This document shows positions 3,304 through 45,109 of a stretch of DNA of 64,000 bases, piece by piece. Positions within the stretch are counted from its first letter, which is position 1, and each line of letters starts with the position of its first letter. The stretch lies in the NCBI GenBank assembly GCA_023248155.1, contig JAHFFE010000007.1, forward strand, positions 4,401-68,400. Direction: 5' to 3'. The stretch is from Candidatus Omnitrophota bacterium (lineage in GTDB: Bacteria > Omnitrophota > Gorgyraeia > 1-14-0-20-64-10). The notes beneath the pieces were generated by a model. That model was given only the letters and a program-made list of their open reading frames with translations. It was not told the DNA's origin and made no database searches. The translations under genes and the position numbers were made by a program.

Positions 3304-3340
3304 GGGGTGCTAGGAATTCCTAGCACCCCTTTTTCTTTTT
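3304..3340 (+). terminator. Rho-independent terminator downstream of the GH94 gene
   Basis: A perfect 26-nt palindrome GGGGTGCTAGGAATTCCTAGCACCCC is immediately followed by TTTTTCTTTTT. Confidence 0.8.
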
Positions 3341-3389: not shown

Positions 3390-3418
3390 TTGACTTTTTA
3401 AAAGGATTCAGGTATATT
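3390..3418 (+). promoter_or_regulatory. Sigma70-like promoter for the giant-protein array
   Basis: TTGACT (3390..3395), an exact 17-nt spacer, then TATATT (3413..3418). This makes the TTG at 3419 an implausible start codon. Confidence 0.55.
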
Positions 3419-3445
3419 TTGTACAAAGGGGATACCTATAAGAGG

Positions 3446-5197
3446 ATGATTATCAAGATATCCAGGATAGGGTTCATTTTTATATTCCTTTCTTTTTCAG
3501 GGACAGCGATCCCGTCTATCTACGCGGTCCAGGAAGAAGGCCCCAAAACTTTCTGGGAAAGCCATGGTAAAGTAGAAGACGAAGAATCCGCGCCCGGTTT
3601 CAGCGGTGAATCGTCGATCGATACCGGATCCAAATTCCAAAAGCCCGACCAGCCAATCCCATTAACACTTGAAAATCTTCGCATTCCCACTCAGGACGGT
3701 TCCCTCAAAAAAACATATTCCGCGCGCGAGCCGTTGGTGATTCATATTCAGGACGCGCATGCCAACTATGAAGCGCAGAAACATCTGGCCAGTATTCTGG
3801 AATATCTGGTGGTCACGCACGGTCTTTCACTGATCCTCGTTGAGGGCGGCTCCCGCAACGATTCGCTTTCCTATATGCGCACCTACGCGCCGATTGAGAA
3901 ACGCAAAGAAGTCGCCGAAGAATTCTTGAAGAGCGGAAAAATCTCCGGTGAAAACTACCTGGACCTGACCACCGACTACAACTTTACCGTTTATGGCATC
4001 GAGAAACCGGAACTGTACGACGAGAACATGGAAGCGTTCTTCAGTGTTGAAAAAGTCCAGCCGCAGGCGCTCTCCGCGATGAAATCGTTCCGCGAGGCGG
4101 TGGAAAATCTCAAGCAGACGATCTATCCCGACGAAGTCAAAACGCTGGAACTGCGCGAGCTGGAAGTGAAGGAAGGGCGCATCCCGCTGGCCCAGCATTA
4201 CCAGTCTTTGGCCGATGAGGCCGGCAAGCGCAAAGTGGCGCTCGACGATAAAACTTATCCGAACCTGCTCAAATTCATCCGCGCCAGCGGCATGGAAAAA
4301 GAGCTGAACTTCAAAACGGTCGAAACCGAGCGGACCAAATTTCTGGAAGCGCTGACCAAATCACTGCCGAAGCCGGAAATGGACAAACTGCTTCAGCAGA
4401 GCTTGGATTTAAAGAAAGGGCTGGTGACGCCGGCCTCATTCTACGGCAACCTGCGCGGGTATATGAAGCCGGGGCAGAACGCCGAATATCCGATATTGGC
4501 CAACTACATTGAGTACCTGGCGCTGTTCGAGGCGATCGACCACGCGTCACTGTTTACCGAGGTCGAAAATTTGAGCGACCAGATTAAAGACAGCTATTTC
4601 AAGGAGAAGGGGCAGCGCATATTGGCCAAGGCGGCTAAAGATGTCGGTGTGCTGGAAGATTTACTCGAGCTGAAATTAACGCCCGACAGCTACGACTATT
4701 ACCGCACGCACCGCAAAGAGTTTAAACCCGATGAATGGGCCGATAACCTGCGCGCGCTGGGCAGCCAGCAAAATCCGCCGATGACGCTGCTGCTTTCGCC
4801 CGGCCCGCTGAACGCGGCGATGCCGGCGATGAGCAGTTTTTACGAGGTGGCGCGCCAGCGCGACCAGGCGATGATGGACAATGCGCTCAAGCAGATCAAG
4901 GAATTCAATGTTCCGTTCGCGGTGCTGATTGCCGGCGGGTTTCATACGCCGGCGTTTGAACGGCTCTTTAAAGAACAGAAAGCGTCATACGCGGTAGTTG
5001 CGCCCAAGGTCAGCAAAGTGACGCAGGAAGACACCGATAAATACCACCGCGTGCTCAAAGAAACGTATGTGCCGATGTCGGAGAAATACCGGCAGAAGCA
5101 GGGATTGCCGTCGTCGTCGCTCGGTGCGGCTTCCGTGCAGACTCGCAAGACAGCGACAGCTTCATTAACTGAAACAGGGGCCGCTTCCGAAGGGTAA
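3446..5197 (+). CDS. Exported protein 1 of the array (584 aa from ATG 3446); possible TraB/GumN-family fold
   Basis: The N-terminal hydrophobic segment IGFIFIFLSFSGTAIPSIYA|VQEEG is a compact version of the motif shared by the next four genes. HxxH (IQDAHANYEAQKH) and C-terminal FAVLIAGGFHTPAF weakly resemble TraB/GumN (FxxVGAGHLxG). The start is uncertain: 3446 is the first ATG after the promoter. Confidence 0.6.
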   Translation: MIIKISRIGFIFIFLSFSGTAIPSIYAVQEEGPKTFWESHGKVEDEESAPGFSGESSIDTGSKFQKPDQPIPLTLENLRIPTQDGSLKKTYSAREPLVIHIQDAHANYEAQKHLASILEYLVVTHGLSLILVEGGSRNDSLSYMRTYAPIEKRKEVAEEFLKSGKISGENYLDLTTDYNFTVYGIEKPELYDENMEAFFSVEKVQPQALSAMKSFREAVENLKQTIYPDEVKTLELRELEVKEGRIPLAQHYQSLADEAGKRKVALDDKTYPNLLKFIRASGMEKELNFKTVETERTKFLEALTKSLPKPEMDKLLQQSLDLKKGLVTPASFYGNLRGYMKPGQNAEYPILANYIEYLALFEAIDHASLFTEVENLSDQIKDSYFKEKGQRILAKAAKDVGVLEDLLELKLTPDSYDYYRTHRKEFKPDEWADNLRALGSQQNPPMTLLLSPGPLNAAMPAMSSFYEVARQRDQAMMDNALKQIKEFNVPFAVLIAGGFHTPAFERLFKEQKASYAVVAPKVSKVTQEDTDKYHRVLKETYVPMSEKYRQKQGLPSSSLGAASVQTRKTATASLTETGAASEG

Positions 5198-5226
5198 CGC
5201 TCAGCCAGGAGAGAGATAAAAATCCA

Positions 5227-8200
5227 ATGAGAATATTTCAGCGGGAAAGATATCGAACCATAATTGCCTTCATTACAATCCTTTCTATTTCCTTTACCCA
5301 AGCTTTGCCTGCCTGGGCTCTGCGCCCTGGGATTGAAGGCCGCTCCCAAGGTGGTCTTGAAGAAAGTCTCCGCGGCGGTACAGCACTTTCAGCTTCTTCT
5401 TCCACTGCTTTACAGGCTGTTTTTTCCGCGGTCGGTCAGATTGAAGATCAGGAGGGCCAACTTCCTGCCACCACGCGGGAGATTGTCATCTCTCTGCTCG
5501 ATCAATTAGAGCAAACCGATCCCACGATTGCCGCTAAGGTGGGCAACCGGGCAGCTGTTCTGTCCCAGATGGACGAACTATTATCCAAAGCTCCAAATGA
5601 AACCTGTCTGACCTGCGGAACGCACGCCGTTTCCAATGTCGCTTTTTCCAGCGCTGAGCGGGCAAAGCCGGAAGGATTACAGTCGGATCGTTTTAACGAT
5701 ACCGAGGTGTTAACTGCCATTTTGATTGTCCTCGATCTGATCAACAGCGGCCGGGTTTTATCGCTATCCGAATCGGATGGGCATCAGGTTCTGGCCAATT
5801 CCATGCTTTCGCTGCGTCAGGCGCTGAATATGCTTGAGGATCGGTTGCCCTCTCAAGACCGGAAGTTATGGACGGGGGCTGAGATTAAACAGGCGGATAT
5901 GGAGAGGCTGCTGAAGGACGGCTATCAGGTTGTCGCGCATCTCGATGGGGATCACTTCGTGCAGGTTACCCGCGTTGAAGGCGGGCGAGTCTGGTACAGC
6001 GAGCCTCGTACTGCGCAGTTTGACGCTGAAAGCCAGCTTTCGATTCGTGATTTTGGCAAACGCTGGGGAAGAGGCGTTGTCTTAACCAACGGGCGAATTC
6101 CTTCATCCAGAACCACATTGGCTGATTCCGCGTTATTAAATTTGCAGGGCTGCTGCGGCATCAACACTGTTTTTGGACAGAATGGCGGAGTTCGTTCCTT
6201 GCTGGACGCGCTGCTTCGTTTGAAATACCGGGCTCCAGACAATACCGGCATCGCCGTCATGACGGAAAATGGGATACAGGTGGTCCGGGTGGGCAAGGAT
6301 GTGCAGGGACATGGAGACGGGGCTCCGGATACGATGGTGGCATTACTTTACAATAATCCGATTTATCCGGAGGCGGTTCCGCTGGCGGTGGAGTGGGGCA
6401 AGAAAAATAGGGCGGGCCAACAGTTCCATACCGAATTAGAGAAAGCAGTAAAGGAAGGAATAGATGATTTTAGAGAGGCGTTAAAATTGTCCAATGCGCC
6501 GCGAAAAGAGACTCTCTTGAAATCGGCCGCCGGGCATTTTGCCCGAGCTGAACAGTATAAAGAACAGCTGACGGTGATGGCTGTTCAACAGGTGCGTGAT
6601 ACCGGGAAAAAACTGCTGGACGATGAGGGTTTGCCGGATCGGCGCGCTGAATTAAAGGGAGATGCATCTACGCTGCGGAACTTGTTTAGTACGGGCATAG
6701 ACGCTGTTACCGTTCATATCGGCCAGGTTGGTGGTATTTGGGCCGGTGATCAATTTTTAATTCGCCATGATAATTTGCGGCAGTTAGTTGAGAAGATCTC
6801 CGCCGCGTTTGGCCTTAACGAAGAGTTTGTCCGCCTCTTTTTGCGCGTGGAGTTATCCAATGTGACCACCGAGCGGTTTGGAGAGAATTCAGCTCAGGCG
6901 GGCGCGGTTTTGGAAGTATTTGACCGATTGTCTTATTCTGCTGTTTTAGGGACACTGACGAATGACCAGCAGGCGGAATGGGATCAGAAAGTGATGAAAT
7001 ATTTGCTGGGGCGCTGGCTCAAAGTTCCGTCTGATTTTAATGTCGACGCAGTACGGCATGTTTTTCGAGCGCAGGCTTCTTTGCTTGGAATGATAAGCCC
7101 TCGCGATGAAAACCCCAGTCTGCATCCTGAATTTCTAAGTGAACTGGCAAAAGAATTTGATCGGCGCATGCCTTCCAGGAAGGGCCAGTTTATGGCCTAC
7201 TGGAAACGTGAACGCGATCTGAATCAGCCGGGGCATGCGTTTGCCGCGCTAAATGAGGTTTTTCATAAATGGGCGTACCAATACAAGGTTGACCTGTGGG
7301 ATGCGAATTCAAAGAGCTATAAACAGGTTCAGTTGCTGGATCAACAGCAGTACAGGGTGCTTGCCGGAACAGGACAGGCTTCCGCCGCCACGGTTCGATT
7401 AATTGGAGAATTGGTGGTTGGCCATGGCCGCTGGGCCATGACCGGAGATCCCAGCCGCTGGAATGCCCATCCGCATGAGAGCAGGGACATGGTTCTGGTT
7501 CATAACGGTACGATTAACGGAATTACGAATGCCACGCTGAAAACCGAGCATAATACCAATGGATTGGCGGCTGCTTACCATGAGAATGGCAACCTGGAAG
7601 GTCCTGAAATTTTAACGGATACGCGGATTATCGTTACGCATTGGCAGTATTTGCAGGATAAAGCGGCCGCGGATCTCGAGTCAGGCCGCATGGGAGAGGA
7701 TTTGATCTATGCCGATGAATCGGACGAGGGAACGGCGCTTGGAACGCGGCTCGAAAAGAAAGGCGAAGGCGACGATGCTGTTACCGGATCAAAAACAACC
7801 GGCCGCGTGCGGGAATGGAACGCCATTGTTCGGAATTTAAGGTCGTCGGGCCGTCAGCATATTTCCGAGAATGAAGTTGCCGTTCGTTTGGCGATGACGG
7901 AAATGGCGGAGGGGTCCGAGATCGGCGTCAGCGCCAACAGTTTGCATGACCCCTTTGTTACTTACGTTGTCAGCCATGACCGGCCGGTGGATATTGTGAT
8001 TCATGAAGGCAAAGTATTGGTGACTTCCGACATGGCGGCCGGCATTGCGTTGTTTCCGGCAGCCGATGTTTCGAGAGCGGCTCAGGAATTATCTAGAATG
8101 CACCGCCGGCTCCAGAGCGAGCTGGAGGATCTCCGCCAGAGGCGGGATGAGAATGACCTTACCCCCGAAGAATATGTGGTCGAGGTCAAGCAGGCGTTTG

Positions 8201-11200
8201 CCGCTTACAAAAAATCAGCCAACCCCATCAAAGAAAAATTCAAGATCGATGTCTATCATTTGAAAGAGTTGAACAAATTCGCCGCTATTCGCAGGGTAGT
8301 CAACAGCGCGGGTGAAATTGAATTAAGCGTTGATATTTCGCATTTGGACGGAACACCGCTGACCGAAAAAGAATGGAATAAAGAGGCAAAATTTGAAAAA
8401 GCCAAAGTAGATCCGGATGTCGGTGTTAAGGGCGGGTACGCCACCTTTATTGAAAAACACGTGGATGAAATCCCGTCGATTTTGTTGGATGACGCCACCT
8501 CGTACATTGAAGTTGACGACGGTCGTCCCGCGCGCGTTCACCTTCCGGATATTAAGACCGATAAACTGACCGGCCGGTTCGGTCCCAAGCTTGAGCGTCT
8601 GCGCCGGGTTTTCTTGATTGGTGTCGGTTCTTCGTGGCGCGACGCCAAAATTGTCGAACAGATGTTTGGCGATTTGCTGCAGGGGGTGGAACTGGTGCAG
8701 ATTTCCGTTCAGGATCCGGTGGAAATTCAGAACCTTGGGATTAAACTGAACCCGGAAACTGATCTGGCGATCGGCATGAGCTGGTCCGGATCAACGGCAT
8801 CGATGGTCAAGCTGTTCAACCGTCTTTCGAGCGGAGAAGACCAGGGCCAGGATGTTCCGTTGATCGCCGTGACCGGTAAGACTTCATCGGATATGGCCAG
8901 CGTTGCCAAGAGAAGCGCGGGGTATGTGGATGTGCAGTCCGGGCCGGAATCATCGGTAGCAACCACGAAAGGATTTGAATCGGTCCTTTACTGCCTCTGT
9001 TTGCTGGGCGTGCAGTTAAGCCAGATGCAGGGCAATGACAGTTTAGTATCGGCCCGCACCCAGTATGTTCAGGAATTATGGGATTTGGTTGACCAACACA
9101 TGGATGCATTGGTGCGGGAACCCGGAAAATCTTCCGGACAAAAAGAACGGTCCACCGCTAAAGTTGAAAATCCCCAGGAACGTTCGAAAGTTCAAAAAGT
9201 GGCCGATGCCTGGCATAGCCGGCAGAAAGTGCTCGTCATTGGAAGCCGCGCCAATCCGGTTTATGTCGAAGGGGAACTTAAGGCGGAAGAAATTGCCTGG
9301 ACGGTCGGCAAGGCGGCGGATATCCGTGATGACAGCTGGCGGTCTTTGCTGGAAAACAGCGCCGATCCCCATGTGACCGAATCGGAGCGAGTCGCCACCA
9401 TTTTTAACATGACGGATCCGGGCACGTTGGATCAGTTTATAAAGGCCATTCGTGAAGTGACGGATCAGGGTATCCAGGTGGTGGTCCAGACATTTCAAAA
9501 AGACAATTCCCATTACGCTGAACTGCAGCGGATGGAACAAGAAGGAAGAATCGCCCTGTTTGAAGTTCCGCGGGTTCGCACGACGCTGCAGGCGTTGGTC
9601 GACGCGATTTTCTTTTTTCAATTTTCAATTGCGTTTGCCCGTTCGCACGGGTTAACAGATCCGCAGATCGATAACCCGAGAAACCTCGCGAAATCAGTCA
9701 CTGTCAGCGGCGCTCGCTCATTGGAAGAGCTGGTCCGGAACTCGGCGACCCGCGTGGTGAAGGTGGACGATATTACTGGGCGGCTGGATGCTTTGCAGCG
9801 CATCTACTCTGTCTATCGGAGCGGTTTAGCCGCGCGATGGGCGGAGCTGCGCTCCGCTCGTCAGCAGGCCGGCGCCCGCCTGTCCGTATTGTTGAATGGG
9901 CTTGTCCGGGAATGGTTTGGAAAACTGGCCAAGCCGAATGAACCGCAATCTCTCTGGCCGGAGGCATCTCAGCGTGATCGCGCTGAACGGTTGCTTGCCC
10001 GGTTTAAACAAGCGGCCAATGCCGATAATCCGACGGCTAAGGTATTGATTGTAACCGACGAAGAAGCCACCCAATACGCCGGCGAAGCGGCTGCCGGCGT
10101 CTATGGTTCCCGCGAGGTGGTTGTTTCAGGCGAACATAAAGATCTCTATGATGCCGATAAAGGCATTAAAATTCGCGCCGGAAAATGGTATTACCGTGCT
10201 TCGTATGACGTTGTTGCCGAGAATTACACGCTGAAGTTTGACGCGAAGCTGAATCCTTACGCGAATCCAGGCGAGCAGCCGGCGGATGCCGGTCCCATCG
10301 TGATTGTCAAAGGACAACAGCAGGTTTCTCTCAACGGAAAACAGTACCGCGTGGATCAGGGCTCGTTTCTCAAGGATCCCAAGGAAAAAGACAAGCTGGT
10401 TTCCGGGCTTCAGATGCGGGCTGAACAGCCTGACCTATTGCTGGCCGGCGTCGAAAATATCCGGGTTGTTCGGGCAACGGATCCCAATGTGGATCAGATG
10501 GTTGATCAGGATACGGTGGTGGTGCTGGTTTCGCGCGCGCGAAACAGGGGATCGGACAATAATAAGGACACGCTCCTTACAAAGCCCGATACCAGGAAAC
10601 AACTTCCTATTCCTTCGAATGCCCAATCCGAACAGACTATGCGCGCGTTGGCGGATCGTTTGGCAAAAAAAGCGATCCCTCTGGTGACGATTGCCGATCG
10701 TGATTCTCTCTTGGAGGATCCTTCATTGGACGAAGTTCGGGTCACGCACTTTTCGCTGGGGAGTGATTTTACTTCATCAAGCGTTTATCCGTCGACTTAT
10801 GTGGCATTGCTGGCGGCGGGTGTCCGGATGGGAGATATCTTGGGGCGTGATGTCCAGCCGGTGGCCCGCTCTCTGTTCGCGGTGCCTGGCATGGTGTCGA
10901 ATGTTCTGGGTTCAGAGCAGCTTCAGAAGCATCTGGAACAGGTTTTGTATCGAGTTCGCGGGTATAAAAAGGTGCATATTATCGGCGGCGGCCAATCGTA
11001 CGCCGATGCTAAGGAATTAGCCCGGGTTCTTTCAACGCTGGGTATTTTTGCTGAAGCCCAGTTGAATGACTCTGCCTGGCATGGGCCGTTGGCCGCGGCG
11101 GATCCTAACCGCAGAAAATACGGAGAACCGGGATCGGATGCCTACAAATATAAATATGGCGTCAATGACGGTTACGATACCGATGGCGATACATTGGTTG

Positions 11201-14200
11201 TCATCCTTGCGACCGACAGCCGGTTTTTTGATTCGGCCATTACCGATGGGCAGGTTTATGATTCCCGCAATGCCCGGGTTCTTTTCCTGACTTCGGATTC
11301 CAACTACGCGCCGAATCTTCCAAGCGGCGATAAAAATCCGGTTCACCGTTCGATCATTGATTCCGGACCTTTGCAATTAGAGGAGTTAACGGAAGCGCAG
11401 GCAAAAGATCCGTCATTGAAAAATCCGGAGGGTGTTTTTACGGTTCTTGACGCGCCTGATTTTCTCTCTAATTTTGGAGCGTTTGCGTTTGGAATCATGC
11501 TGGCGGATGAATTCTCGCATCAGAATGAGGAATCCCTTCGAACTCGTCCCGCCGAAGAGATTAGCCGGTTTAATTTGAGTGCCGAGTCCGCCTCTCCTGC
11601 GGGGGTTCCATTGGACTCTGTTCCTTTGCCGCAGCCGTTGAACAGTCTGGAGACTTTTTTGACCACGAGCGGCGGCCGCCCATTGGGCGAATCAAATCTT
11701 TTTAATCAATTAAGCACTCTGTCGGCAAAGCAATCGATCCAGGGGGTAATGGCTCCTTATCGTGACAGGCCGCAACAGACGGCTGTTTATCTGGCGTTTC
11801 CCTATCAAGATCCGGGTCAGGCTCAAACCGTGCTTACCGGTATTGTTTCAGATGTTGCCAATTTTCTGAAAAAGCGAGACCCAATCATCGATTCCTTTGG
11901 CCGAAGTTACGATGGGATTTTTTATCTGACACTGGTATTTGATAATACAGTCTGGTCTGCCGTTCCCGGCTTGCTTCAGGCAATTCAATCGTCTGTTCAG
12001 GCCCGCGCAGTTCCGGGAGCGCCTGTTTCTATTGATTCTTCCGCGATGCCTGGCACGGGAGTACAATCATCCACGGTATTTACGGGTCTCAGGGAAGGGG
12101 TTGTTGGCGGAGATGCGGCCGCTGAGACGGCCTTTATTGCCGAAATGAACCGGGTGCTTGGATTTGAGCACGTGTCCGATCAGGGGGATGTCGCGAACCA
12201 AATTCTGGAAGGTTATCGCCGGTTCCATGAAACGCGTACTCCTCAGGTTTTCGCGGTGCCCCATCCTTCCGGGGAGGCCAACCGATTCATATTGGCGGCC
12301 ATCGATGAAAATCTTCCCCATTTGGTAAACGCGCATGTGACCGAGCCGCTTGATCGGAGGGAAGGATTGGATTATGCGACATTAGCGGGACAGAGAATCG
12401 ATCATGTCGCCGGATTGATGGTCATGGATGTTCAAAATGTTCTTGCGGATGATATTGCCGCGATCGCCGCGAAAGCTCAGAAATCTTTAAGAGGCGCGGA
12501 TGCTCCCGCCGCGTTCCTCGCGATTTTTGATCCGTTTGAGTACCAACTTCCGGGATCGCCGCTAAAATCTTCTGTCTACGCTGAATTCCTGCTTGTTCAG
12601 GAAGGGGCCAAAGTTCGGACCATCATTTCCGATTATGTTCCTCTTCGTGGGCAACAGAATGCCTTCTCGGTGACCTTTCGGGATGATACCTTATCTGCCG
12701 AAGCGCTTGACCGCGATATTCGCGCGGCCATCACCCGACATGGTTTAAAGATTGCAACCGACCCTGCCGCAAATGAAATGGTATTCTCGGTTGTCTATGA
12801 AGGGGTTCGCTTTATGCGATACATTGTGAATTCCATTACTACCGTAGACGGCAAGCTTGATGAGAGATTGTTAACAACGGTTGAAGAGGTTGACGCCTTT
12901 GTCGCTCCGTCTTCCGCGGACAGTGCCGTGGTGTTGCGCGATCAATTGGTTGAACAGGCGCACCAGGAATTTCTGGCGGACCCCATCCAGGGGATTCATT
13001 TTAAAGCCGAATACGATACGCAAACAAATCAAACGGTTTTGGTTGTTGTCAGTGAAATTGGTCAGCCCAATCTGGTGGCGGCTGTTTCTGCCGTCGTATC
13101 AGAGGCCAAGCTTGATCTTGGGAGAAACTTTGGCGCGCTTTCGGATCGTTCCGGAGAAGATGTGGAGTATTTCATCGTACCGGGCGAAGTGCCGGCCGCG
13201 ACCATTGACCAGATTCAAAACAGACTCTCGGCAACGGTTACGCTTCATTTCCAGAGAGCAGTGTTGGAAGTGCTGCCTTCTTTAAATTCAAACGAAATAG
13301 CTCTCCATTTTCGTGACTTTAGATCCGCGGTTGAGAACGGGGTTGCTTTCCCAACTTTGTTGGCTGAGGGCACTTCCAATCCGGATAAGCAAATCCTCTC
13401 GTTTGCTGTTCGTCAGCCATCCGTTGCTGATATGCGAATACAGTTATTACAATCTATCGTCAGAATTTTCGACTTAAACTCAAACGGGATTACCGGAAAC
13501 ACTTTTTTTGAATACGACGGTGTAATGATCTTCCATGCGAATATCGCAAAAACCGCACTCGGTTCCCCGATTAACGTTGTACAACAGCAGATCACGGAGG
13601 TCTTGCAGCCGTTCAAGGCTGGTTTGGAAGAAACCGCTGGAAAAGCCACCGAGGATCAACGGCTGGATGTGTTGGGCGCCAGCGCACGGTTCCTGCGGGT
13701 TTTGGAGGCGGGCGGTGCCACGGTTACATTCTCCGGTCCTTTGCACGATAACGGTTTGGTTAATTCGTTGGAGGGCGCTGTCAGCGTTGTGAACGCGCAG
13801 CGGCTGGAGGGAGGCGCTTATACGGTGGCAACCTATTACCCGGGTGGTGGAACAAAGACGAGCGCTGTTCTTTTGGAACAGAGGGAATTGCCGGATGTTC
13901 AGGTTAGGGATGTGACCAGCGACTTGAATAATTTGCGCGCCTCAACGGCTGAAGCGGTTACTTTCACTCTGAATCAGGTGCCGGTTGTTTCGAGTCAACA
14001 GGCGATAACCCAGGGATTTGTATTCGGATCTTCAACCGGGCTGGCTCTCGGGGTAGCGTTAAGCCGTGTCCAGGATTCTAACGGGAATCGTTTGCCCGCG
14101 GCTTTTGTGGTAGCCAACGGAGATCAGCGGGCTGTCTTGGAGCGGATCGACGGGATTTCTCCGGAGAGCATCCACGCTACGGCAGACCAGGCCGAAGCGT

Positions 14201-14382
14201 GGCTGTTGGAACAGTATCCGGCTGTTACGTCCGATGCAATTCAGGATTTCGGAATAACGAAACCGGTTTCTCAAACCGTGGTACAGATTTTTGAAATTCT
14301 GTTTGGCATCACGCCGGATGCCGCGCTTCAGTTCCAATTAGAACAGTTAGTTGCCCAGGCCACGCTGGCCTTCCAGGCATAA
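5227..14382 (+). CDS. Giant exported protein 2 (3051 aa) with an embedded GlmS-like module (class II glutamine amidotransferase + 2 SIS domains)
   Basis: An uninterrupted 9.2 kb ORF with a GGAGAGAGA SD. The N-terminus is TM/signal plus AWALRPG..GLEE. Internal matches to E. coli GlmS by eye: [23 protein letters not shown] (MCGIVG..LRRLEYRGYDSAGLAV), [29 protein letters not shown] ([29 protein letters not shown]), [11 protein letters not shown] (ETDTEVIAHL), SIS motifs [14 protein letters not shown] and [11 protein letters not shown] (VASTKAFTTQL), and C-terminal [10 protein letters not shown], identical to the GlmS C-terminus. Confidence 0.85.
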   Translation: [3051 protein letters not shown]

Positions 14383-14386
14383 AAAA

Positions 14387-20224: not shown

Positions 20225-20229
20225 TCGTA

Positions 20230-31983: not shown

Positions 31984-34900
31984 TACACTTTTCCAAAAGA
32001 TCTCAGGCGCCGTTCTTATCGGCGCCTTTCTTTTTGTGAACGCGGCGCCGGGTTATGCACTGCGCGCCACTCAGCCGGTAGTGGGCTCCGGTGCCGAAGA
32101 GCTTAGACAAAAACTTTCCGTCAATAATTCCGTTCCTGCTTTTGCCGGACAGGAGGAAACGCCGCCATCGCCGATTATGGGCCATCGTTTGGTGGAGACC
32201 GGAATTCCGGGTTACCGCCGCGTTGTTTATTTTCTGCAGGACGGTTCTTCGTGGAATGGCGGTGTTGTCCGTTCTGATGTCCCTGAAAATGCGATTGCTT
32301 CGACCGCTTATCTAGCCCCGTACAGTTTTGCGGAAGGGGCAGCGGCGCGATTGGAAGATGGCGCGCAGGTGGCAGACGGATCGGCCGTTATTAATTCGGC
32401 GATTCGTTCCGGCGCGAAGTTGAATGGTTCCGTCGCGGAAAATGCGCTGGTTCATCCGGCGGCCTGGGTTTCGTATTCAGCGCTGGGTCCGGCGTTTGAT
32501 GACGACAGCTGGAGTTATTCGCTAGCGACCGAAAGAGACTCCGAGCTTTCAGTTCGCAATCATTTGGCTTTTTTTGCGCGTAATACTTACCGCGTGGAAG
32601 TCGGTTACAACAGTTCGGTGCGCGGATCGGTTTTTCAAGACAGCGCTGTCGGCCCGGACAGTGATATTTTTGGGAGCGCGTTGGTAATCAGCCGCTGGGG
32701 TGAACAGACCCGCATGGACGGCGGCGTAAAATCGTGGCTGGCGGTCGGCGCGCAGGGCCATGCCGATATTGCCGGCGTTCAGCATCGTCCTGACGGGACC
32801 GAGATTCCGGCCGCGCTGGAAATCGCCGAGGCCGCTTATCAGGGATTGCCGGCCGAACAATATCCCGGCACTCAAATTCACGAGCACCATGTCGGTTATA
32901 CAGAGGCGGTTATTACCAACAGCGTACCGTTAGTCGGTTATACCGCCGGGGAATTAACTGTTACACCTTATCTGGTTCCTCCCATAACCTTATTCGGCGA
33001 TTACACAATTTTCTCGATCTTCGCCGGTTCTCCGAATCCACAGGGAATTAAAACTGACGGCAGGCCGACGCCCGGTGTTATTACGCGCTTGACCGGCGGT
33101 CCCGGCGAACAGAGCAGTCAGCATGGCCGGATTATTTCCGACCCGCTTTCAATTCTCCCCGGATTTTCAAATGTGATCGGCCGTCTGCTGGGATTCCCGG
33201 AACTGGATAATCCATTGGCACTGCTGACCGAACCGGAAGTGACGCATCTGGGCCCTCTCTCGGCTGTCGGCGCCGATGCGCAGCTCGGTTTAAATGGTCT
33301 GGAAGGATGGGGGCAGATATTACCGGCCGAAGCGCGCGGCCAGTTAAGCCGCGGTTCCGGCATTGCGCCCTGGGTATTTTTGTATTCTCCCGAGGTTCTT
33401 TTTTCTTTGATGGGTCAGCTGGCTTCCGGTTTACCTGCGAATGATCAGTCCCGGTACGATGATTTGCCGCAGCGGTTACTGGAATCAGGACTGGCCTTAA
33501 GCCGATGGATGCTCGATCAGGAACAGGCAAAAGACGCGCAAGCCAACGCGCAGGTGATTGAACGGCTTGAGCGGTACATCGCTGGTTTTTCGGCATTGAT
33601 TGAGAGCGAGGCCTGGGCCGGAAAATGGGTGCAGGATGGGGAACTGCGTCACCCGGAACAGTGGCAACGCTATGGCGATCGGTGGGAAACCAGTTCTCTA
33701 AATCTTGCAAACATGCATCGTCAGATTCATCCATTTGCCGATTCGGTTCCGTATACGCAAGTTCCTCTTCGTTACTTGTTGGCGGTTCCCGATGGTGTCG
33801 ATCGTCCCGATTGGAGCCAGTGGACCGGCTACTATCTGAAACCCGAAGACCTTCAGACCAGTCCGCCCACACCGCTCGATCAATTAGAGCAGGTGGATGA
33901 ATCGTTAAAAGAATGGAGAATTATCGGACAGGACGCAAAATTTTATTACACGGTCGAGGGCGGCCGGATCGGCCGTGAAGTCGATTTAAAGATGATTCAT
34001 CCTTCTGCGCTGATTGGTCCCGGCACGGTGTTAATCGGAGCGGCCACTTCGGTGGGCGAAGGGACCCGCCTGCTTCGCGTCATTGCCGATAATACGGTAA
34101 TCGGCAGCGAAACCCATCTGACCGCCGTTTATTCCAGAAGCACTGTTTTTGGAAACGGGATTAAACTGACTTGGGCGAAAACGACCCGCCTGGTGAGGAT
34201 TGGAGATGGCACCGTCGGTTCCTATGTCGGCATCTCGGAAGGGAGTGTCGTTGGAAAAAATAATACCTTTGAGCCATTTGCGCTGGTGATTAATTCCACC
34301 ACGGGACCTAATAACGTGATCGGCATTTCGTTGGTGAACAGCCAGGTTCAGCCTGGTTTCATGGGACGGCATCTTTCGACGGCGGTGCATAACCTTCAGC
34401 AGCAATCGGTTCGTTTTCAAGTCAACGGAAAAAACTATGATTTGAAGGCCGCTTCCCTCAATGTGGCTGGTGGGTTGTTCGTTCAGGGCAATGATAAGAC
34501 CCCGGTTCGTTTGAGTTCGGCTTATCCGCTTTCGCTGACAACGATTGATCCGGGGAATGGACAGAAGTTCGCAGTCGGCGCTTTCAGCGTTCTTAAAAAT
34601 CAAATTCGTCTCGACGACGGGCAAATCCTGCCACTGACATTTCATGCGTTCAATCATGTGGCATCCACTGATCCGCTATTTGCCCAGCCGGGCCGGCACA
34701 ACGACTCCATCGGCGGCGCGCTGGAATTCCCGGGAATTTTTCTGCGCAATTTTATCTATCGGACGAAGAAAGGAATTTATGACGATCTGGCCGCGCAGGG
34801 ATTAACGCGCGAGCAGATTCTTGTCCATCCGCGGATGCTGCAGTCCGATTATATGATTGAGGCGACCATTGTCAGCGCGCTGGTGCAGGTAATCAATCAA

Positions 34901-35734
34901 CTGCGCGAGATCGATATGGATGCGTATGATCATTTGGTTGGAACCGGTAATGCGGCGCTGGGCCGGCTGTTAAAATTGGCGGAAGGTGATCTGTCGCAAA
35001 TTGAGCAGGGCGATCAATCTGCGCTAGGTGTTCGAACTCCCCAGCTGCAGGTACAAATTAAAATGGCTATTAGGCAGGTTCAGCAGGCATTGGATTCTTT
35101 GCCGGGAAGCCGTCCTTCCGCCGGCACCGTTTCTTCGTCGGGGCATACGGCCGCGCAGTTATTGGAAGGGGTTGCGCGGTTGTCGCAAAATCTCGATGGC
35201 CGCTGGCGGATGCGCAACCACACGTTTACTGAAGTCGAATGGCGTTACCAGGCGTACGATGCGTCCCGCCGCGCGCGCGATACCTGGGTTCCTGTCTCGA
35301 AACCCGATTCATTGCCGATTCCGCTGCCGGCCGGAGCATTGTCCGAAGGGAAATATCTTTTTATCGCCCCGAGCGTGGCTGTTCCCGAACTTTGGGCTGG
35401 TTTGGGCCGGCTGAAGCCGTCTTCCGGAGAAACAATCGGTCTGGTTATTTTTGGCCGAGATGCCGGTCATCTGGAAACTATTCGGGCAGAGATGATGGGG
35501 TATTCATTTGCGTCATCGGCGAAATTCATCGATCTATCTCAGTACAGCGACGATTTGATGCGGGCGGTTGCGGGTCAGGTGGCTGTGCTGGGCAGTAATG
35601 ATGCATTTGAATACCGGCTGATCCGAACATTCAGCGATCTCGGTGTTATTGGGAAGTTCCTCCAAATTCCGGATATTTCGTTCCGTGCCTGGGAGCGGCA
35701 AATTCAGAACGCCGGGTTCGAAGAATATGTATAA
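31970..35734 (+). CDS. Giant exported protein 5 (1254 aa from ATG 31970) with a left-handed beta-helix (hexapeptide acyltransferase-like) region
   Basis: The ATG overlaps the last 14 nt of gene 4. The N-terminus is MSTRNTLFQKISGAVLIGAFLFVNAAPGYALRATQPVVGSGAEELRQ. An LbH-like run IGPGTVLIGAATSVGEGTRLLRVIADNTVIGSETHLTAV...IGDGTVGSYVGISEGSVVGKNN is present. The upstream in-frame ATGs at 31796 and 31952 would add a non-hydrophobic extension, so 31970 is preferred. Confidence 0.8.
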   Translation: MSTRNTLFQKISGAVLIGAFLFVNAAPGYALRATQPVVGSGAEELRQKLSVNNSVPAFAGQEETPPSPIMGHRLVETGIPGYRRVVYFLQDGSSWNGGVVRSDVPENAIASTAYLAPYSFAEGAAARLEDGAQVADGSAVINSAIRSGAKLNGSVAENALVHPAAWVSYSALGPAFDDDSWSYSLATERDSELSVRNHLAFFARNTYRVEVGYNSSVRGSVFQDSAVGPDSDIFGSALVISRWGEQTRMDGGVKSWLAVGAQGHADIAGVQHRPDGTEIPAALEIAEAAYQGLPAEQYPGTQIHEHHVGYTEAVITNSVPLVGYTAGELTVTPYLVPPITLFGDYTIFSIFAGSPNPQGIKTDGRPTPGVITRLTGGPGEQSSQHGRIISDPLSILPGFSNVIGRLLGFPELDNPLALLTEPEVTHLGPLSAVGADAQLGLNGLEGWGQILPAEARGQLSRGSGIAPWVFLYSPEVLFSLMGQLASGLPANDQSRYDDLPQRLLESGLALSRWMLDQEQAKDAQANAQVIERLERYIAGFSALIESEAWAGKWVQDGELRHPEQWQRYGDRWETSSLNLANMHRQIHPFADSVPYTQVPLRYLLAVPDGVDRPDWSQWTGYYLKPEDLQTSPPTPLDQLEQVDESLKEWRIIGQDAKFYYTVEGGRIGREVDLKMIHPSALIGPGTVLIGAATSVGEGTRLLRVIADNTVIGSETHLTAVYSRSTVFGNGIKLTWAKTTRLVRIGDGTVGSYVGISEGSVVGKNNTFEPFALVINSTTGPNNVIGISLVNSQVQPGFMGRHLSTAVHNLQQQSVRFQVNGKNYDLKAASLNVAGGLFVQGNDKTPVRLSSAYPLSLTTIDPGNGQKFAVGAFSVLKNQIRLDDGQILPLTFHAFNHVASTDPLFAQPGRHNDSIGGALEFPGIFLRNFIYRTKKGIYDDLAAQGLTREQILVHPRMLQSDYMIEATIVSALVQVINQLREIDMDAYDHLVGTGNAALGRLLKLAEGDLSQIEQGDQSALGVRTPQLQVQIKMAIRQVQQALDSLPGSRPSAGTVSSSGHTAAQLLEGVARLSQNLDGRWRMRNHTFTEVEWRYQAYDASRRARDTWVPVSKPDSLPIPLPAGALSEGKYLFIAPSVAVPELWAGLGRLKPSSGETIGLVIFGRDAGHLETIRAEMMGYSFASSAKFIDLSQYSDDLMRAVAGQVAVLGSNDAFEYRLIRTFSDLGVIGKFLQIPDISFRAWERQIQNAGFEEYV

Positions 35735-35830
35735 TATAGATATAGGTTCGATTTACATTTCTTTAGGTGCCATTGACGAACCATCGGTTATCGGCGATAC
35801 TTCGAGCAGACAGAGGAGACCAGGACTTTT

Positions 35831-37744
35831 ATGAATATCCCAAGCGATAAATCGCCCCGTTTCGTTTTCCGGTTTTTTTCAGCTTTGTTTATGGTGGCCC
35901 TGGTTTTCGTAATGCCTGCAACCCTCTTTGCCGATCCAACGCCGGTTCCCGAATCTTCCGCTGAAGCGGCCAAACCGCCTACGGCCCAGAATAACAAGGA
36001 TTATGTGCCGGGCGAGGTATTGGTCCGTATCAAGGATGGTGTTCCGGTCTCGCAGGTGGCGGCACTCGCCAAATCGATGGGCGCGAACCTCGACCGCCGC
36101 GTTACTTCGTGGGGACTCTATCTTTTTAAGTTCAGTGATTCCGCTCCAATTGATGAAGTTGTCAATCGTCTTCGCCAGCACCCGGCGGTTCAATATGCCG
36201 AGCCCAACGGAAAAATGCAGTTGTTCGGCGTCGGCGACGGCAGCGGATCCGGTTCGGAAAATTCTTCGGCAGGAACCCCGATTCTGGTGGCCGTGATTGA
36301 TACCGGCATTGATTTGAATCATACGGCGTTCGCCGGACATCTGTATCAGAACCTGCGCGAGATCGCCGGCGACGGCATTGATAACGACGGCAACGGTTAT
36401 GTCGACGACGTCAATGGATTTGATTTTTACAGCCGTTCCTCCTCCCCGATGGGAACGGCTGGTTCCGGCGCGCACGGTACGCAGGTGACCGGGCGCATTT
36501 TGCAGGGTGCCGTCGACGCGCCGGTTTCGGTGATGGCGCTGAGGGTCGGCCCCGGGCCGTCGCTTTCGTTGGCGGCCATCGTTGAAGCGATCGATTACGC
36601 CGTCAACAACGGCGCGAAAGTTATCAATATGAGCCTCGGCGCAACGATGCCGTATCAGGCGCTTTCCGAAGCGGTTCAGCGCGCGATTGACCGCGGCGTG
36701 ATTGTCGTGGCGGCGGCTGGCAACAGCGGCGCCGTGACGCCGAACTATCCGGCCGCTTTGCCGGGCGTGATATCGGTGGCCGCGTCCGACGCCAATGGCG
36801 CAAAAACCTGGTGGTCAAACTACGGCAGCACTGTCGATTTCACGGCGCCCGGTGATCAGGTAGTCACTACGACTTTCGGCGGAGGAAACGCCGCCGTCAG
36901 CGGAACTTCATTCTCGGCGCCGTTTGTGGCCGGCATGGTCGCGCGTATTCTTTCGGCCATGCCGAACCTCGGCGTAAATGATGTGATTAATAATTTGAAG
37001 GCATTTGCCAAAGATATTTACGCGGTGAACCACAGTTTTTACCAGGGCAAGCTGGGGCAGGGATTCCTCGACGAGCAGGTGGCTTCGCGCATCGCGCAGG
37101 CATTTCCGTTAGCGCCGCGGTCTCCGGCCGATCAGCCGCAGAATCAGAAGGATATGCTCGATGCCCAATTGGCCGCCGCGCAGAGGGAAGTCGCCCGGCT
37201 TGAATCGGAACTTTCCGCCGCAGACCGGAACCTGACCGCCGCGCATGAAGCTACTGTCGCTGCGAATGCACAAGTGGATCAGGCGGTGCAGAATGCCAAC
37301 CAGGCCTGGAAAGATTTCACGAATGCCTGGAGCGCCTGGTTCCGCGCCAGTTACTCGATCCGTGTTTCTCCGCAGGAAAAAGAATCACTGCGCCAGAAAA
37401 TGCAGCAGGCCTGGGAAAAAATGAACAAGGCCAACGCCGAAAAGCAGGATGCCCAGGCCCGCCAGCGCGTGGCGCAGTCGGATGAGAACCGGATCCGGAC
37501 CCAGCGTGAATCAATCGCCACCCAGCTGCGCGGCGCGCGCCAGCAGGTGGACGACATCAACCGGCGCCTTTCGGCGCTGATCAACCCGGCGCAGGGGGGA
37601 CAGGCCGAAACGAACTCGTTGTTGGGCCGTCTGCACGCGATTTCTCAATCGCTTAGTTTCGGGCCGCGCGGTCTGGGAATGCAGGAAGCGTCCGAATTGT
37701 CGCTGCCGGGTTCCGACAACGATCAGAATACAAGCGCTAAATAA
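35831..37744 (+). CDS. Secreted S8 subtilisin-like serine protease with a C-terminal coiled-coil region
   Basis: A GAGGAGA SD precedes the ATG. There is a signal peptide. Catalytic triad motifs: VAVIDTGID (Asp), HGTQVTG (His), GTSFSAPFVAG (Ser). The C-terminal ~180 aa are Q/A/R/E-rich heptad-like sequence. Confidence 0.85.
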   Translation: MNIPSDKSPRFVFRFFSALFMVALVFVMPATLFADPTPVPESSAEAAKPPTAQNNKDYVPGEVLVRIKDGVPVSQVAALAKSMGANLDRRVTSWGLYLFKFSDSAPIDEVVNRLRQHPAVQYAEPNGKMQLFGVGDGSGSGSENSSAGTPILVAVIDTGIDLNHTAFAGHLYQNLREIAGDGIDNDGNGYVDDVNGFDFYSRSSSPMGTAGSGAHGTQVTGRILQGAVDAPVSVMALRVGPGPSLSLAAIVEAIDYAVNNGAKVINMSLGATMPYQALSEAVQRAIDRGVIVVAAAGNSGAVTPNYPAALPGVISVAASDANGAKTWWSNYGSTVDFTAPGDQVVTTTFGGGNAAVSGTSFSAPFVAGMVARILSAMPNLGVNDVINNLKAFAKDIYAVNHSFYQGKLGQGFLDEQVASRIAQAFPLAPRSPADQPQNQKDMLDAQLAAAQREVARLESELSAADRNLTAAHEATVAANAQVDQAVQNANQAWKDFTNAWSAWFRASYSIRVSPQEKESLRQKMQQAWEKMNKANAEKQDAQARQRVAQSDENRIRTQRESIATQLRGARQQVDDINRRLSALINPAQGGQAETNSLLGRLHAISQSLSFGPRGLGMQEASELSLPGSDNDQNTSAK

Positions 37745-37796: not shown

Positions 37797-38252
37797 GTGA
37801 AGAAACAATTCATTTTTTGGATCATTTTTTTGTCTTTTTTCGCTTCCGCGCATGCGGCAGAACTTGATCTGTTTGCCCAGGTGGACCGGCAGCAGCTGCG
37901 CCCAGGAGAACGGCTGACCTACGCCGTTACACTGGTGGGAGCGATGGTTCACGGCACGCCCCGTTTGGAACTCAACGAATTCAAGGGATTTTCGGTTATT
38001 TCTACCGGTCAGTCCCAGCAGGTTCGGATGCACAACGGGCAGACCCAGCAGGCGGTTACATTGACCTACACGCTTTCTCCATCGACGCCGGGCACTTATC
38101 TTTTAGGTCCGGCGCGCGTCGAATACGAAGGCAAGGTCTATGCCACTGAAGCCATTGAAATTCAGGTTGTTGAAGACGGTGAACAAAAAGTTCCGCCGGC
38201 TCGGGGCAACCCGCGTAAAGCTCCGGCGTTAAGAGGAGGAGTCGTTTTGTGA
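37797..38252 (+). CDS. Small secreted protein of unknown function
   Basis: A GTG start is followed by a signal peptide MKKQFIFWIIFLSFFASAHA. No family was recognised. Confidence 0.5.
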   Translation: MKKQFIFWIIFLSFFASAHAAELDLFAQVDRQQLRPGERLTYAVTLVGAMVHGTPRLELNEFKGFSVISTGQSQQVRMHNGQTQQAVTLTYTLSPSTPGTYLLGPARVEYEGKVYATEAIEIQVVEDGEQKVPPARGNPRKAPALRGGVVL

Positions 38253-40238: not shown

Positions 40239-40248
40239 GGAGGAGAGC

Positions 40249-40524
40249 ATGGCGATTGTTGTTCGAATTCCGACCCCGCTCCAGAAATTGACGGGCGATA
40301 AAGCTGAAGTGACCGCCGAGGGCGGAAGTGTGCAGGATTTGTTGACCGATTTGGACCGGCAGTTTCCGGGACTGAAAGACCGGCTTTGCGATCCAAGCGG
40401 CAAACTGCGCCGGTTTGTGAATTTGTATGTCAACGAAGAAGACATTCGCTTTTTAAAGCAGGAATCGACGGCGCTGAAAGACGGCGACGAAGTGTCGATC
40501 ATTCCCGCGATAGCCGGAGGATAA
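40249..40524 (+). CDS. MoaD/ThiS-family sulfur carrier protein ending in Gly-Gly
   Basis: A 91-aa ORF with a GGAGGAG SD. The C-terminus is ...SIIPAIAGG-stop. Its GG codons also form the SD of the next gene. Confidence 0.75.
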   Translation: MAIVVRIPTPLQKLTGDKAEVTAEGGSVQDLLTDLDRQFPGLKDRLCDPSGKLRRFVNLYVNEEDIRFLKQESTALKDGDEVSIIPAIAGG

Positions 40525-40530
40525 CCAACC

Positions 40531-40773: not shown

Positions 40774-40776
40774 CTC

Positions 40777-45096: not shown

Positions 45097-45109
45097 AAGG
45101 GAATTTACG

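Follow-up and report, generated by a model that had tools for sequence, protein, structure and literature searches.

Members of the Omnitrophota encode giant open reading frames (ORFs), and the giant proteins of this phylum are among the largest predicted proteins in biology. According to two recent papers, long and giant Omnitrophota proteins tile metabolic domains (phosphoglucomutase/phosphomannomutase, PGM/PMM; ROK; hexokinase; NUDIX) behind signal peptides (West-Roberts 2023, 10.1101/2023.11.21.568195; Nielsen & Lui 2026, 10.64898/2026.06.07.730766), the length threshold being at least 10,000 amino acids (aa) in the catalogue of Nielsen & Lui and more than 30,000 aa in that of West-Roberts. 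S8 and C39 peptidases are suggested to cut the giant proteins (West-Roberts et al. 2023), a predatory or epibiotic lifestyle is proposed for the phylum, and Velamenicoccus RNA is reported to enter archaeal cells. Here we describe a locus of this kind in a window of 64,000 nucleotides (nt) from Candidatus Omnitrophota bacterium (assembly GCA_023248155.1, contig JAHFFE010000007.1, positions 4,401-68,400 of the forward strand). It is an array of six plus-strand genes, A-F, in which a gene for a putative hydrolase (A) precedes four genes for large proteins (B-E) and a subtilase gene (F). We give an even chance to the reading that this region is one case of a conserved Omnitrophota cassette that makes, exports and probably processes modular multi-enzyme polyproteins.

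Judged against the 'multi-enzyme metabolic cluster' giant proteins and 'Archaeovorins', the array is a small-format, multi-gene member of an already described Omnitrophota long-protein phenomenon; the claim of the original prediction, made from the DNA sequence, that its scale and organisation fit no standard system is thereby outdated. Like the giants, B-E come from the same phylum and place a signal peptide before metabolic enzyme domains of cytoplasmic type, which may tile the chain as ROK, PGM/PMM, kinase and NUDIX domains do in the giants; they likewise have few homologs, diverge fast, are accompanied by S8 peptidases of the suggested kind and lie near carbohydrate-utilisation genes. In contrast to the giants, which reach 10-147 thousand aa and have tens of transmembrane (TM) helices, B-E measure 1.25-3.9 thousand aa each, are spread over four ORFs and possess one hydrophobic segment each. 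Individually they fall below the 10,000-aa catalogue length, and only their sum, 10,167 aa, exceeds it. SecA-DEAD and C39 domains were not found in B-E using Pfam and NCBIfam, and there is no type II secretion system (T2SS) or pilus gene among the annotated neighbours.

The array and its upstream signals are laid out as follows (all coordinates are window positions):

3304-3329, plus strand: terminator-like hairpin with an 11-bp stem, 8 GC pairs and a T-run, which closes the upstream GH94 unit
3390-3418, plus strand: sigma-70-like promoter match, TTGACT-17-TATATT, 10/12, a consensus match only
3419/3446-5197, plus strand: gene A, ~583-592 aa (ATG at 3446; the ORF opens at TTG 3419)
5227-14382, plus strand: gene B, 3051 aa, the first large modular protein
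14387-20224, plus strand: gene C, 1945 aa
20230-31983, plus strand: gene D, 3917 aa
31970-35734, plus strand: gene E, 1254 aa from ATG 31970
35831-37744, plus strand: gene F, 637 aa, S8 subtilase

The genes are co-oriented and look operon-like. Their junctions, in order, are gaps of 29, 4 and 5 nt, a 14-nt overlap between D and E, and 96 nt between E and F, and no convincing terminator was found within the array by a sequence consensus search. The promoter, the tight spacing and the trailing protease had all been noticed in the original prediction and are confirmed, the promoter only as a consensus match. It had also counted five consecutive mega-proteins of roughly 10,700 aa: the ORFs are real, and A, at ~583 aa and unrelated to B-E, is no mega-protein, so that four large proteins remain, with the total given above. 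For E, an alternative start follows from the 1260-aa database call P0124 (N-terminus MLPRRSMSTRNT), which would open 6 codons upstream at 31952. Within the signal-peptide coding stretch of E, 22 nt past the D stop (32005-32027), lies a perfect GC-rich inverted repeat of 8 bp (AGGCGCC...GGCGCCT) with a T-run behind it. This repeat may act as an attenuator inside the operon or be a chance occurrence, the latter because the terminator-like count in the region is not above that in shuffles.

The window stems from a metagenome and database homologs are lacking for most of B-E, and the original prediction had itself allowed for long ORFs that are assembly chimeras; pseudogenes and mis-joined contigs belong to the same class of artefact. 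This explanation is effectively refuted, and we regard it as vanishingly improbable. Protein C was recovered with identical sequence from independent ENA, NCBI and Logan assemblies, as was F by exact-sequence look-up, and the termini (first 60 and last ~175 residues) of the database proteins P0125, P0126 and P0124 match those of B, of the C-terminal 3008 aa of D, and of E, respectively. The frames of B-E run unbroken for 1254-3917 codons at ~53% GC. Syntenic large ORFs are present at no fewer than 17 related loci (here numbered L002, L007, L008, L167 and so on), and orthologous ORFs of 3000-6000 aa keep their synteny in many species-level genomes.

B-E share one plan, resembling beads on a string: a leader, an AGLEE-type motif, modules separated by further AGLEE-type motifs, and a common C-terminal domain (CTD). 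Two co-evolving accessory enzymes, A and F, accompany this plan. The shared ends are:

5227-5364, plus strand: leader of B (signal peptide, LRP, xGxEE)
14387-14510, plus strand: leader of C (same elements)
20230-20364, plus strand: leader of D (same elements)
31970-32160, plus strand: leader of E (same elements)
13927-14379, plus strand: CTD of B
19784-20221, plus strand: CTD of C
31531-31980, plus strand: CTD of D
35282-35731, plus strand: CTD of E

Each leader has a positive n-region, a hydrophobic core of ~12 residues and a c-region containing Pro and a small-x-small motif (PAWA, PSYA, PSYA and PGYA in B-E, respectively), and continues at once with L-R-(P) of the (D)-x-L-R-P type, B reading ...PAWA|LRP. 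The pentapeptide GGLEE, AGQEE, SGLEE or SGAEE follows 5-15 residues past L-R-(P). The signature [WYF]ALR stands at all four N-termini of B-E and occurs just twice elsewhere in a six-frame translation. Signal peptides were assessed by eye and by Kyte-Doolittle hydropathy; by these means an N-terminal hydrophobic segment with signal-peptide features is present in all six proteins A-F, and B-E possess no TM segment beyond this one.

The CTD spans ~130 aa, is shared by B, C and D and is more divergent in E, with the pattern LPSA..vGVvAG..GLAxGVA..PVAFVV..Q..L..G...LFGIxL...W..F...A-COOH. A profile search of 1.84 billion representative proteins found it in just 32 proteins, always at the extreme C-terminus; most of these are 780-4734 aa long, the rest being shorter or fragmentary, and the full-length ones bear the same leaders. 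The structural model of the CTD (pLDDT 80) is a four-stranded Rossmann-like alpha/beta fold, whose structural neighbours are generic only.

The delimiter [AGS]G[LQAF]EE occurs 14 times in B-E against ~0.7 expected by chance from residue frequencies, and a slightly wider pattern was counted 68 times against 3.8 in shuffles of 21 family proteins. This enrichment is clade-limited: the close clade has 29 occurrences where 3.1 are expected, and the distant clades have 8 where 5.8 are expected. The delimiter falls at module borders. In C, AGQEE at aa 1284 (nt 18236-18250) lies between the ROK and UAP-like regions described below; in D, AGLEE at aa 3778 (nt 31561-31575) separates the GHMP kinase from the CTD; and in the related database protein P0129, delimiters at aa 1383 and 1931 bracket a formate-tetrahydrofolate ligase (FTHFS) domain (1392-1922), another following its ROK domain. 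Since synonymous codon positions vary freely, the motif is a signal at the peptide level; for the same reason a DNA-level recombination signal was rejected.

Comparison between relatives shows that breakpoints of ORF fusion and fission fall exactly at AGLEE. Residues 84-1015 of C are ~52% identical to the C-terminal part of single ORFs of 3083 and 3316 aa in L007 and L008, respectively. Likewise, a single ORF in L168 covers both D aa 2236-3782 and E aa 59-1252, which are separated there by an additional module of 450 aa; the E segment is 59% identical to the C-terminal part of this ORF, which also has the D-like GHMP part. At the junction, L168 reads '...KTQAGLEETPPSPIVSH' where window E reads '...AFAGQEETPPSPIMGH', or, in another excerpt of the site, '...KKTQAGLEETPPSPIVSH' and '...PAFAGQEETPPSPIMGH', respectively. 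Behind the GHMP module, the motif precedes the CTD in the window and a further module in L168.

The array also stands in a conserved setting. The order ROK-GH94-A-large protein is kept at 17 loci, so the syntenic arrays that the original prediction proposed to look for do exist, and it is preceded in relatives by an ABC sugar transporter and a NagA-like amidohydrolase. The two flanking genes in the window are:

51-734, plus strand: ROK kinase, 5'-truncated by the window edge (Pfam ROK, 2e-31)
797-3217, plus strand: GH94 glycoside phosphorylase (Pfam, 8e-102)

At these loci the flanking genes are 68-83% identical and the large proteins only 30-52%; between L002 and the window, for example, identity is 34% for B, 72% for A and 77% for GH94. 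B-E thus diverge far faster than their flanking genes. A genome-collection scan with protein C matched patterns and recovered no relatives, and a word-indexed protein search returned C itself and two partial homologs; few relatives were found because B-E are too divergent for such searches.

The recognisable content of B-E consists mostly of hexosamine and nucleotide-sugar enzymes of cytoplasmic type, as far as sequence comparison can assign them, with catalytic motifs retained. This matches the conserved upstream sugar genes (ABC importer, NagA-like, ROK, GH94). The clearest module is a complete, expanded GlmS-like region in B, aa 310-1493 (6154-9705, plus strand), colinear with canonical GlmS. 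By phmmer, GlmS residues 2-44, 62-105, 217-458 and 594-608 align with B residues 310-352, 724-765, 1041-1316 and 1479-1493, respectively, and the assignment is supported by NCBIfam glmS (1.7e-43), by phmmer alignments to PDB sequences and by phmmer against Omnitrophota GlmS. The module keeps the nucleophile, glutaminase, SIS and C-terminal motifs: CGI, YRxxD, RWA..NAHPH..HNG (aa 724-765), SxSGxT, both SIS phosphate-binding motifs, EGxLKxxE and PRNLAKSVTV, with two SIS domains and an end at DNPRNLAKSVTV. Unlike GlmS itself, it is twice as long because of inserts (~370 aa in the glutaminase domain), scores 149 bits, far under the NCBIfam equivalog cutoff of 418, and begins 309 residues inside a 3051-aa protein with an export signal. 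An origin of the B module by recent fusion of the glmS found behind A in other lineages was rejected, since the module gives only ~43 bits against that gene. Cys310, in CGI preceded by Q-G-C, occupies the position of the N-terminal nucleophile (Ntn) and is one of six cysteines in the 3051 residues of B. Since this nucleophile is internal in the precursor, the module would be active only after cleavage before Cys310; an internal cysteine that needs exposure by cleavage is also found in propeptide-bearing Ntn amidotransferases such as B. subtilis PurF. An extra SIS-like stretch lies at aa ~1902-1961 of B (10930-11109, plus strand; Pfam SIS best at 1914-1961, weak phmmer support).

Two side features of B are cysteine pairs: a CxxC pair (CLTCGTH, aa 127-130, 5605-5616) in the otherwise cysteine-free N-terminal 309 residues, and a C-x-C pair inside the SIS domain at aa 1256-1258. 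Both may be metal or redox sites.

The modules assigned in C and D are:

17309-18223, plus strand: ROK kinase in C, aa 975-1279 (Pfam ROK, 6e-8; NCBIfam NanK-like)
18260-18925, plus strand: UAP1/AGX1-type UDP-GlcNAc pyrophosphorylase-like region in C, aa 1292-1513 (PDB 1vm8 and 1jv1, 6e-6 to 3e-5)
30223-31482, plus strand: galactokinase-like GHMP kinase in D, aa 3332-3751 (Pfam GHMP_kinases_N, 5e-11; NCBIfam galactokinase, 1e-9)

C therefore reads leader, dark region, ROK, AGQEE, UAP-like region and CTD. Its ROK domain was rejected as a recent copy of the neighbouring ROK gene (20% identity, E = 0.24). In D, a weak ATP-grasp match at aa 3014-3110 precedes the GHMP kinase, and the ~3000 N-terminal residues have no detectable homolog, aa 1-3090 giving nothing against PDB sequences at E <= 5. 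E consists of its leader, an AGQEE-TPPSP module start, a weak left-handed beta-helix (LbH; aa 686-773, nt 34025-34288), a weak NUDIX match and the divergent CTD, and it also gave nothing against PDB sequences at E <= 5. Each of B-E thus contains one to three detectable enzyme modules, without repeats, and ~70% of their sequence has no detectable homolog. The counter-proposal made in the original prediction, of ordinary, well-known surface proteins, finds no match in the largely homolog-free sequence. Modules in CTD-bearing or syntenic array relatives include PGM/PMM, SIS, GATase, APH kinase, GHMP and WD40, and P0129 contains a near-canonical FTHFS (3e-183, 610 bits).

The products of B-E look exported, because their signal peptides are accompanied by a cysteine depletion like that of the other exported proteins of the window; the original prediction had also called the products exported, and signal-peptide features in all six agree with it. 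Just 7 cysteines occur in the 11,387 residues of A-F (0.06%). Most cytoplasmic-type proteins of the window contain 0.8-2.9% cysteine, the exception being GcvT with none, and the other signal-peptide proteins (BatD, MetA-like porin, OEP, OmpA) have no cysteine or only that of the lipobox. As the cysteine purge spares the GlmS nucleophile, extracytoplasmic residence with retained catalysis is favoured.

The same modules can be read differently, namely as a membrane-anchored cytoplasmic metabolon whose N-terminal helices are anchors and which converts imported chitobiose or GlcNAc (through GH94, ROK and NagA) to UDP-GlcNAc for the cell wall. Every recognisable module is indeed of cytoplasmic type and cofactor-dependent with catalytic motifs kept; the array adjoins the GH94 phosphorylase and ROK kinase genes, to which relatives add an ABC sugar importer and a NagA-like gene; canonical glmS follows A at four distant loci; and Nielsen & Lui take TM-only long proteins as cytoplasm-facing. 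However, the positive n-region, the ~12-residue h-region and the Pro and small-x-small motifs are typical of a cleaved Sec signal with N-in, C-out topology, the cysteine purge resembles the exported rather than the cytoplasmic proteins of the window, and A and F carry signal peptides themselves and have folds that are typically extracytoplasmic. Moreover, the GlmS module of B has diverged to an extreme degree from the canonical GlmS of Omnitrophota (43 bits), and Nielsen & Lui report canonical glmS and glmU from almost every complete genome of another Omnitrophota class. The metabolon is disfavoured by the topology signals and the cysteine purge, and we hold it to be unlikely.

Export could also serve a structural purpose, B-E forming a coat or adhesin in which enzyme-like domains bind sugars without catalysis and fix the cell to the amino-sugar polymers of a host or prey wall. 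For the giant proteins of Omnitrophota, roles as coat proteins, adhesins or agents of cell-wall degradation have been proposed; B-E carry export signals, hexosamine-binding folds would suit peptidoglycan, pseudomurein or chitin as ligands, and fast evolution is typical of surface proteins. Against this, Pfam, Tandem Repeats Finder (TRF) and BLASTP revealed no repeats and no adhesin, lectin, dockerin or Ig-like domains in B-E: TRF found 0 arrays in positions 3000-38000, and all-against-all BLASTP found no similarity among B-E beyond their first 40-60 residues and no repeats within or between proteins. The original prediction was therefore right to argue against a classical repetitive adhesin, and the RTX, Bap and Ig-like types are rejected on these grounds. 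The kept catalytic residues (Cys at the Ntn position, one of the six in B; the PRNLAKSVTV lysine motif; EGxLKxxE) also speak against mere binding, and a near-canonical FTHFS, as in P0129, has no sugar-binding role. A coat or adhesin is accordingly disfavoured by the retained catalytic motifs and the lack of adhesin features, and we consider it rather improbable.

Gene A encodes a putative membrane-anchored hydrolase, as its predicted fold suggests. The confident AlphaFold model (pLDDT 88.3, pTM 0.83) has an alpha/beta core, residues ~84-183 and 490-540 of the 582-aa query, which shares the core fold of the Tiki/TraB/EreA/ChaN superfamily. Tiki, TraB-PrgY, erythromycin esterase, ChaN and RRSP have conserved His, Glu, Arg, Asn and G-x-x-H-like motifs across two half-domains, and A may have their counterparts, as judged by motif order: among 88 sequences of its family, H99, D102 and H104 (HIQDxH), E132 (VEGG), R471, N478 and GGFH499 show no variation or reach a conservation of at least 90%. 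Unlike those proteins, A has H-I-Q-D-x-H rather than G-x-x-H as its first motif, its core is interrupted by a ~300-aa helical insert, it matches no Pfam or NCBIfam model at E <= 0.01 (TraB, Erythro_esteras and Cofac_haem_bdg included), and its family occurs mostly in metagenome-assembled genomes (MAGs) labelled Omnitrophota. An A-family profile gave chance matches only against PDB sequences. The N-terminal signal or anchor with its positive n-region, the acidic stretch behind it and the absence of cysteine would fit a catalytic domain outside the cytoplasm. Tiki, an enzyme tethered to the membrane, works outside the cytoplasm and clips the N-terminus of a protein after its secretion, and RRSP is an endopeptidase with a specific cleavage site; the superfamily also holds esterases and haem-binding proteins, so the activity and substrate of A remain putative and protease activity is only a suggestion.

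The A family is widespread in the phylum. We found 304 homologs, and all those with a source name are from Omnitrophota/Omnitrophica; a pattern scan with one genome per GTDB species gave at least 561 loci. About two thirds of the 78 loci kept are labelled Omnitrophota/Omnitrophica, about two dozen are third-party annotation (TPA) MAGs labelled 'uncultured Planctomycetia' or 'Planctomycetales', three are labelled 'bacterium', and one each Ratteibacteria, Elusimicrobiota and Deltaproteobacteria. In the 'uncultured Planctomycetia' TPA MAGs (L009, L011, L013, L014, L017, L019, L020, L022-L025 and others), A is up to 65-73% identical to that of the window, and 16 of these loci also have GH94 and/or ROK synteny; they are probably mislabelled Omnitrophota.

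Large, leader-bearing proteins commonly accompany A. We considered 50 species-level loci with an ORF within 1.2 kb after A and counted an ORF as large if it had at least 700 aa or was cut by the contig end. The next ORF is large in 39 of these loci, and in 32 of the 39 L-R comes after a signal peptide, 17 of them having D at -2 and 16 having P at +2. A stricter leader motif is present in 27/40 downstream-of-A ORFs with a hydrophobic N-terminus versus 9/119 other small ORFs of this kind, most of the 9 belonging, as additional truncated members, to tandem arrays. After A, two or three large proteins with leaders commonly form an array, and large ORFs before A are common as well. LRP was rejected as a hallmark shared by the secreted proteins of these genomes, because A, F, BatD and OmpA lack it and control ORFs seldom have it.

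At L034:1712-3541, L038:11513-13342, L049:11476-13305 and L051:4237-6066, the A-family gene is directly followed by a canonical 609-aa glmS (MCGI...), and L038 and L049 also have a large ORF before A (811 aa and at least 3251 aa, the latter cut by the locus end). The succession in four distant Omnitrophota species is notable since the window gene after A holds a highly diverged GlmS module. At L004:11745-13827, the A homolog is separated by two IS200-type Y1 transposase genes from a Kelch/DUF2341 protein of 4689 aa, and a 2551-aa HEAT-repeat protein with an AVAMRP leader is encoded upstream of A.

Gene F encodes a secreted S8 subtilase (Pfam Peptidase_S8, 1.3e-40) with a Fervidolysin_NPro-like N-terminal prodomain (8.7e-15), a catalytic triad whose motifs VIDTG(D157), AHGT(H215) and GTSFSAP(S360) are conserved in the L008 ortholog, and a tail of ~170 aa that is a coiled coil. 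Orthologs of the F type form ~29 clusters in Omnitrophota, and the closest named homologs are Omnitrophota/Omnitrophica MAG proteins. The subtilase really belongs with the array, as it directly follows the last large protein in five of six cases (the window, L008, L167, L168 and L169), the more distant L170 being the exception. Defining the window's clade by A at least 65% identical, we found the S8 subtilase, AGLEE and the CTD together only in this clade. A metagenome scan with a two-sequence subtilase alignment gave, among the matches listed, 80 generic subtilases of 28-43% identity, none with a match to the CTD, A or the F tail.

We propose the most parsimonious mechanism, in which we infer all cleavage steps and the biological role of the cassette. 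B-E would be translocated by Sec. Membrane-tethered A would act on the LRP leader and may shorten or free the N-terminus in the way that Tiki acts on Wnt. Subtilase F would cut the AGLEE linkers and free single modules, comparable to the processing of viral polyproteins and MARTX toxins, and the GlmS module would need its extra cleavage before Cys310, as in Ntn amidotransferases with propeptides. Fusion or splitting of ORFs at AGLEE would be tolerated because the mature products would be the same. Speculatively, the enzymes may act where the cytoplasm of a host or prey is accessible, since they need ATP, UTP, glutamine and sugar phosphates; this would fit the lifestyle proposed for the phylum and the reported entry of Velamenicoccus RNA into archaeal cells, and such activity could feed the adjacent GH94/ROK/NagA/ABC amino-sugar utilisation genes.

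Several points weigh against this mechanism. AGLEE might serve as a structural linker or for docking instead of being cut by a protease, A and F are tied to B-E solely by gene adjacency and co-occurrence, and A, given the esterases and haem binders among its relatives, need not be a protease. Export is hard to reconcile with enzyme modules that require cytoplasmic cofactors, the same paradox that Nielsen & Lui raise for cofactor-dependent enzymes outside the cytoplasm, and the 610-bit FTHFS of a relative argues for real, cofactor-dependent catalysis. An apparatus for outer-membrane crossing or host entry is not among the Pfam-annotated window genes. In addition, the hydrophobic segments of C and D lie under the Kyte-Doolittle threshold used, the domain matches of E lie under Pfam thresholds, and the hexosamine theme draws on a minority of B-E, most of their sequence having no homolog.

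A broader and bolder reading, which we put forward as a doubtful possibility, is that A and the D-x-L-R-P leader constitute an undescribed phylum-wide sorting and maturation system that marks large and giant proteins for export. In the clade of the window, AGLEE polyproteins cut by the subtilase would then yield cysteine-free enzymes (GlmS, sugar kinases, UDP-GlcNAc pyrophosphorylase, PGM, FTHFS) that act in or at a breached host or prey cell and redirect metabolites to the epibiont.

Downstream of F, two genes complete the immediate neighbourhood:

37797-38252, plus strand: BatD-domain protein, variable in relatives (BatD or Lactamase_B)
38249-38992, plus strand: OmpA-family lipoprotein, kept downstream of the subtilase in relatives

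The OmpA gene is followed at 39000-40900 by a PALP (cysteine-synthase-like) gene; in L168 and L169, ThiS and NIL-domain genes come next, which suggests that a sulfur-carrier-type module is conserved downstream of the cassette. The region 40937-51310 is a heavy-metal resistance cluster with an ECF sigma factor, Metal_resist, a MetA-like porin, OEP, a multicopper oxidase with HMBD, DUF2231, a P-type ATPase with HMBD, a CDF cation-efflux protein and DsbD, and it is partly syntenic in L168. Glycine cleavage genes, GcvT and then GcvP subunits 1 and 2, occupy 51905-56239. Between 58000 and 64000, GC falls from ~0.55 to 0.46-0.50 and the AT skew is strongly negative; this segment encodes a PMT_2 glycosyltransferase-like membrane protein and, on the minus strand, an NTP_transf_5 and sulfotransferase protein, and may be a horizontally acquired glycan-modification island. 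The Pfam-annotated neighbours are ROK, GH94, BatD, OmpA, PALP, ECF sigma factor, metal-resistance and glycine-cleavage genes, and no T2SS, type IV pilus, Tad or other secretion or pilus genes are among them, a few small ORFs lying outside the scan. Elsewhere, a PIN/MazE-type toxin-antitoxin pair was seen on the opposite strand between two large array genes (L167:3749-4422), and another PIN/MazE-type pair, again on the opposite strand, after the last array gene seen, near the contig end (L007:16774-17450).

Recent papers explicitly raise the questions of how giant proteins are exported and cut and what role metabolic domains could have outside the cytoplasm. The locus offers a compact, tractable case, with four ORFs of 1-4 thousand aa, one hydrophobic segment each and clear module borders, and it provides several handles: a leader motif together with a Tiki-fold enzyme at the 561 or more A loci, a motif resembling polyprotein junctions, a co-occurring subtilase and a cleavage-dependent GlmS module. 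If the proposed processing is true, it would account for tolerated ORF fusion and fission and for plastic gene length in the phylum, and would define a new protein-sorting signal; if the enzymes do act in host cells, they would be a new kind of metabolic effector. Four elements were not found, by term search or in the sections consulted, in West-Roberts 2023 and Nielsen & Lui 2026: the Tiki-fold partner with phylum-wide D-x-L-R-P pairing, the AGLEE delimiter with fission and fusion, the CTD, and the cysteine purge with a retained internal Ntn cysteine. A term search of the two papers for TraB, Tiki and erythromycin gave no mention.

Outside the phylum, B-E can be compared with the C-terminal domain cargo of the type IX secretion system (T9SS) and with autotransporters, which likewise combine a Sec signal, a variable passenger and a conserved domain only at the extreme C-terminus. 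The CTD of B-E, however, is predicted to be alpha/beta and Rossmann-like rather than a beta-sandwich or beta-barrel, and both identities were rejected, as there is no TIGR04183 or autotransporter match and no T9SS genes were seen. MARTX identity was rejected as well: RtxA-type glycine-rich repeats and an inositol-hexakisphosphate-activated cysteine protease domain are missing from B-E in Pfam and NCBIfam, and type I secretion genes, which would form the cognate operon, from the annotated neighbours; moreover, the modules of B-E are metabolic enzymes of housekeeping type and not known toxins, and processing is here a proposal. As a functional analogy only, MARTX toxins and viral polyproteins nevertheless resemble B-E in having conserved ends around variable, shuffled and unrelated enzyme modules, short inter-module sites, a protease encoded with the cargo and a repertoire that differs between close relatives. 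The logic of the proposed sorting by A and D-x-L-R-P would be comparable to that of sortase/LPXTG and exosortase/PEP-CTERM.

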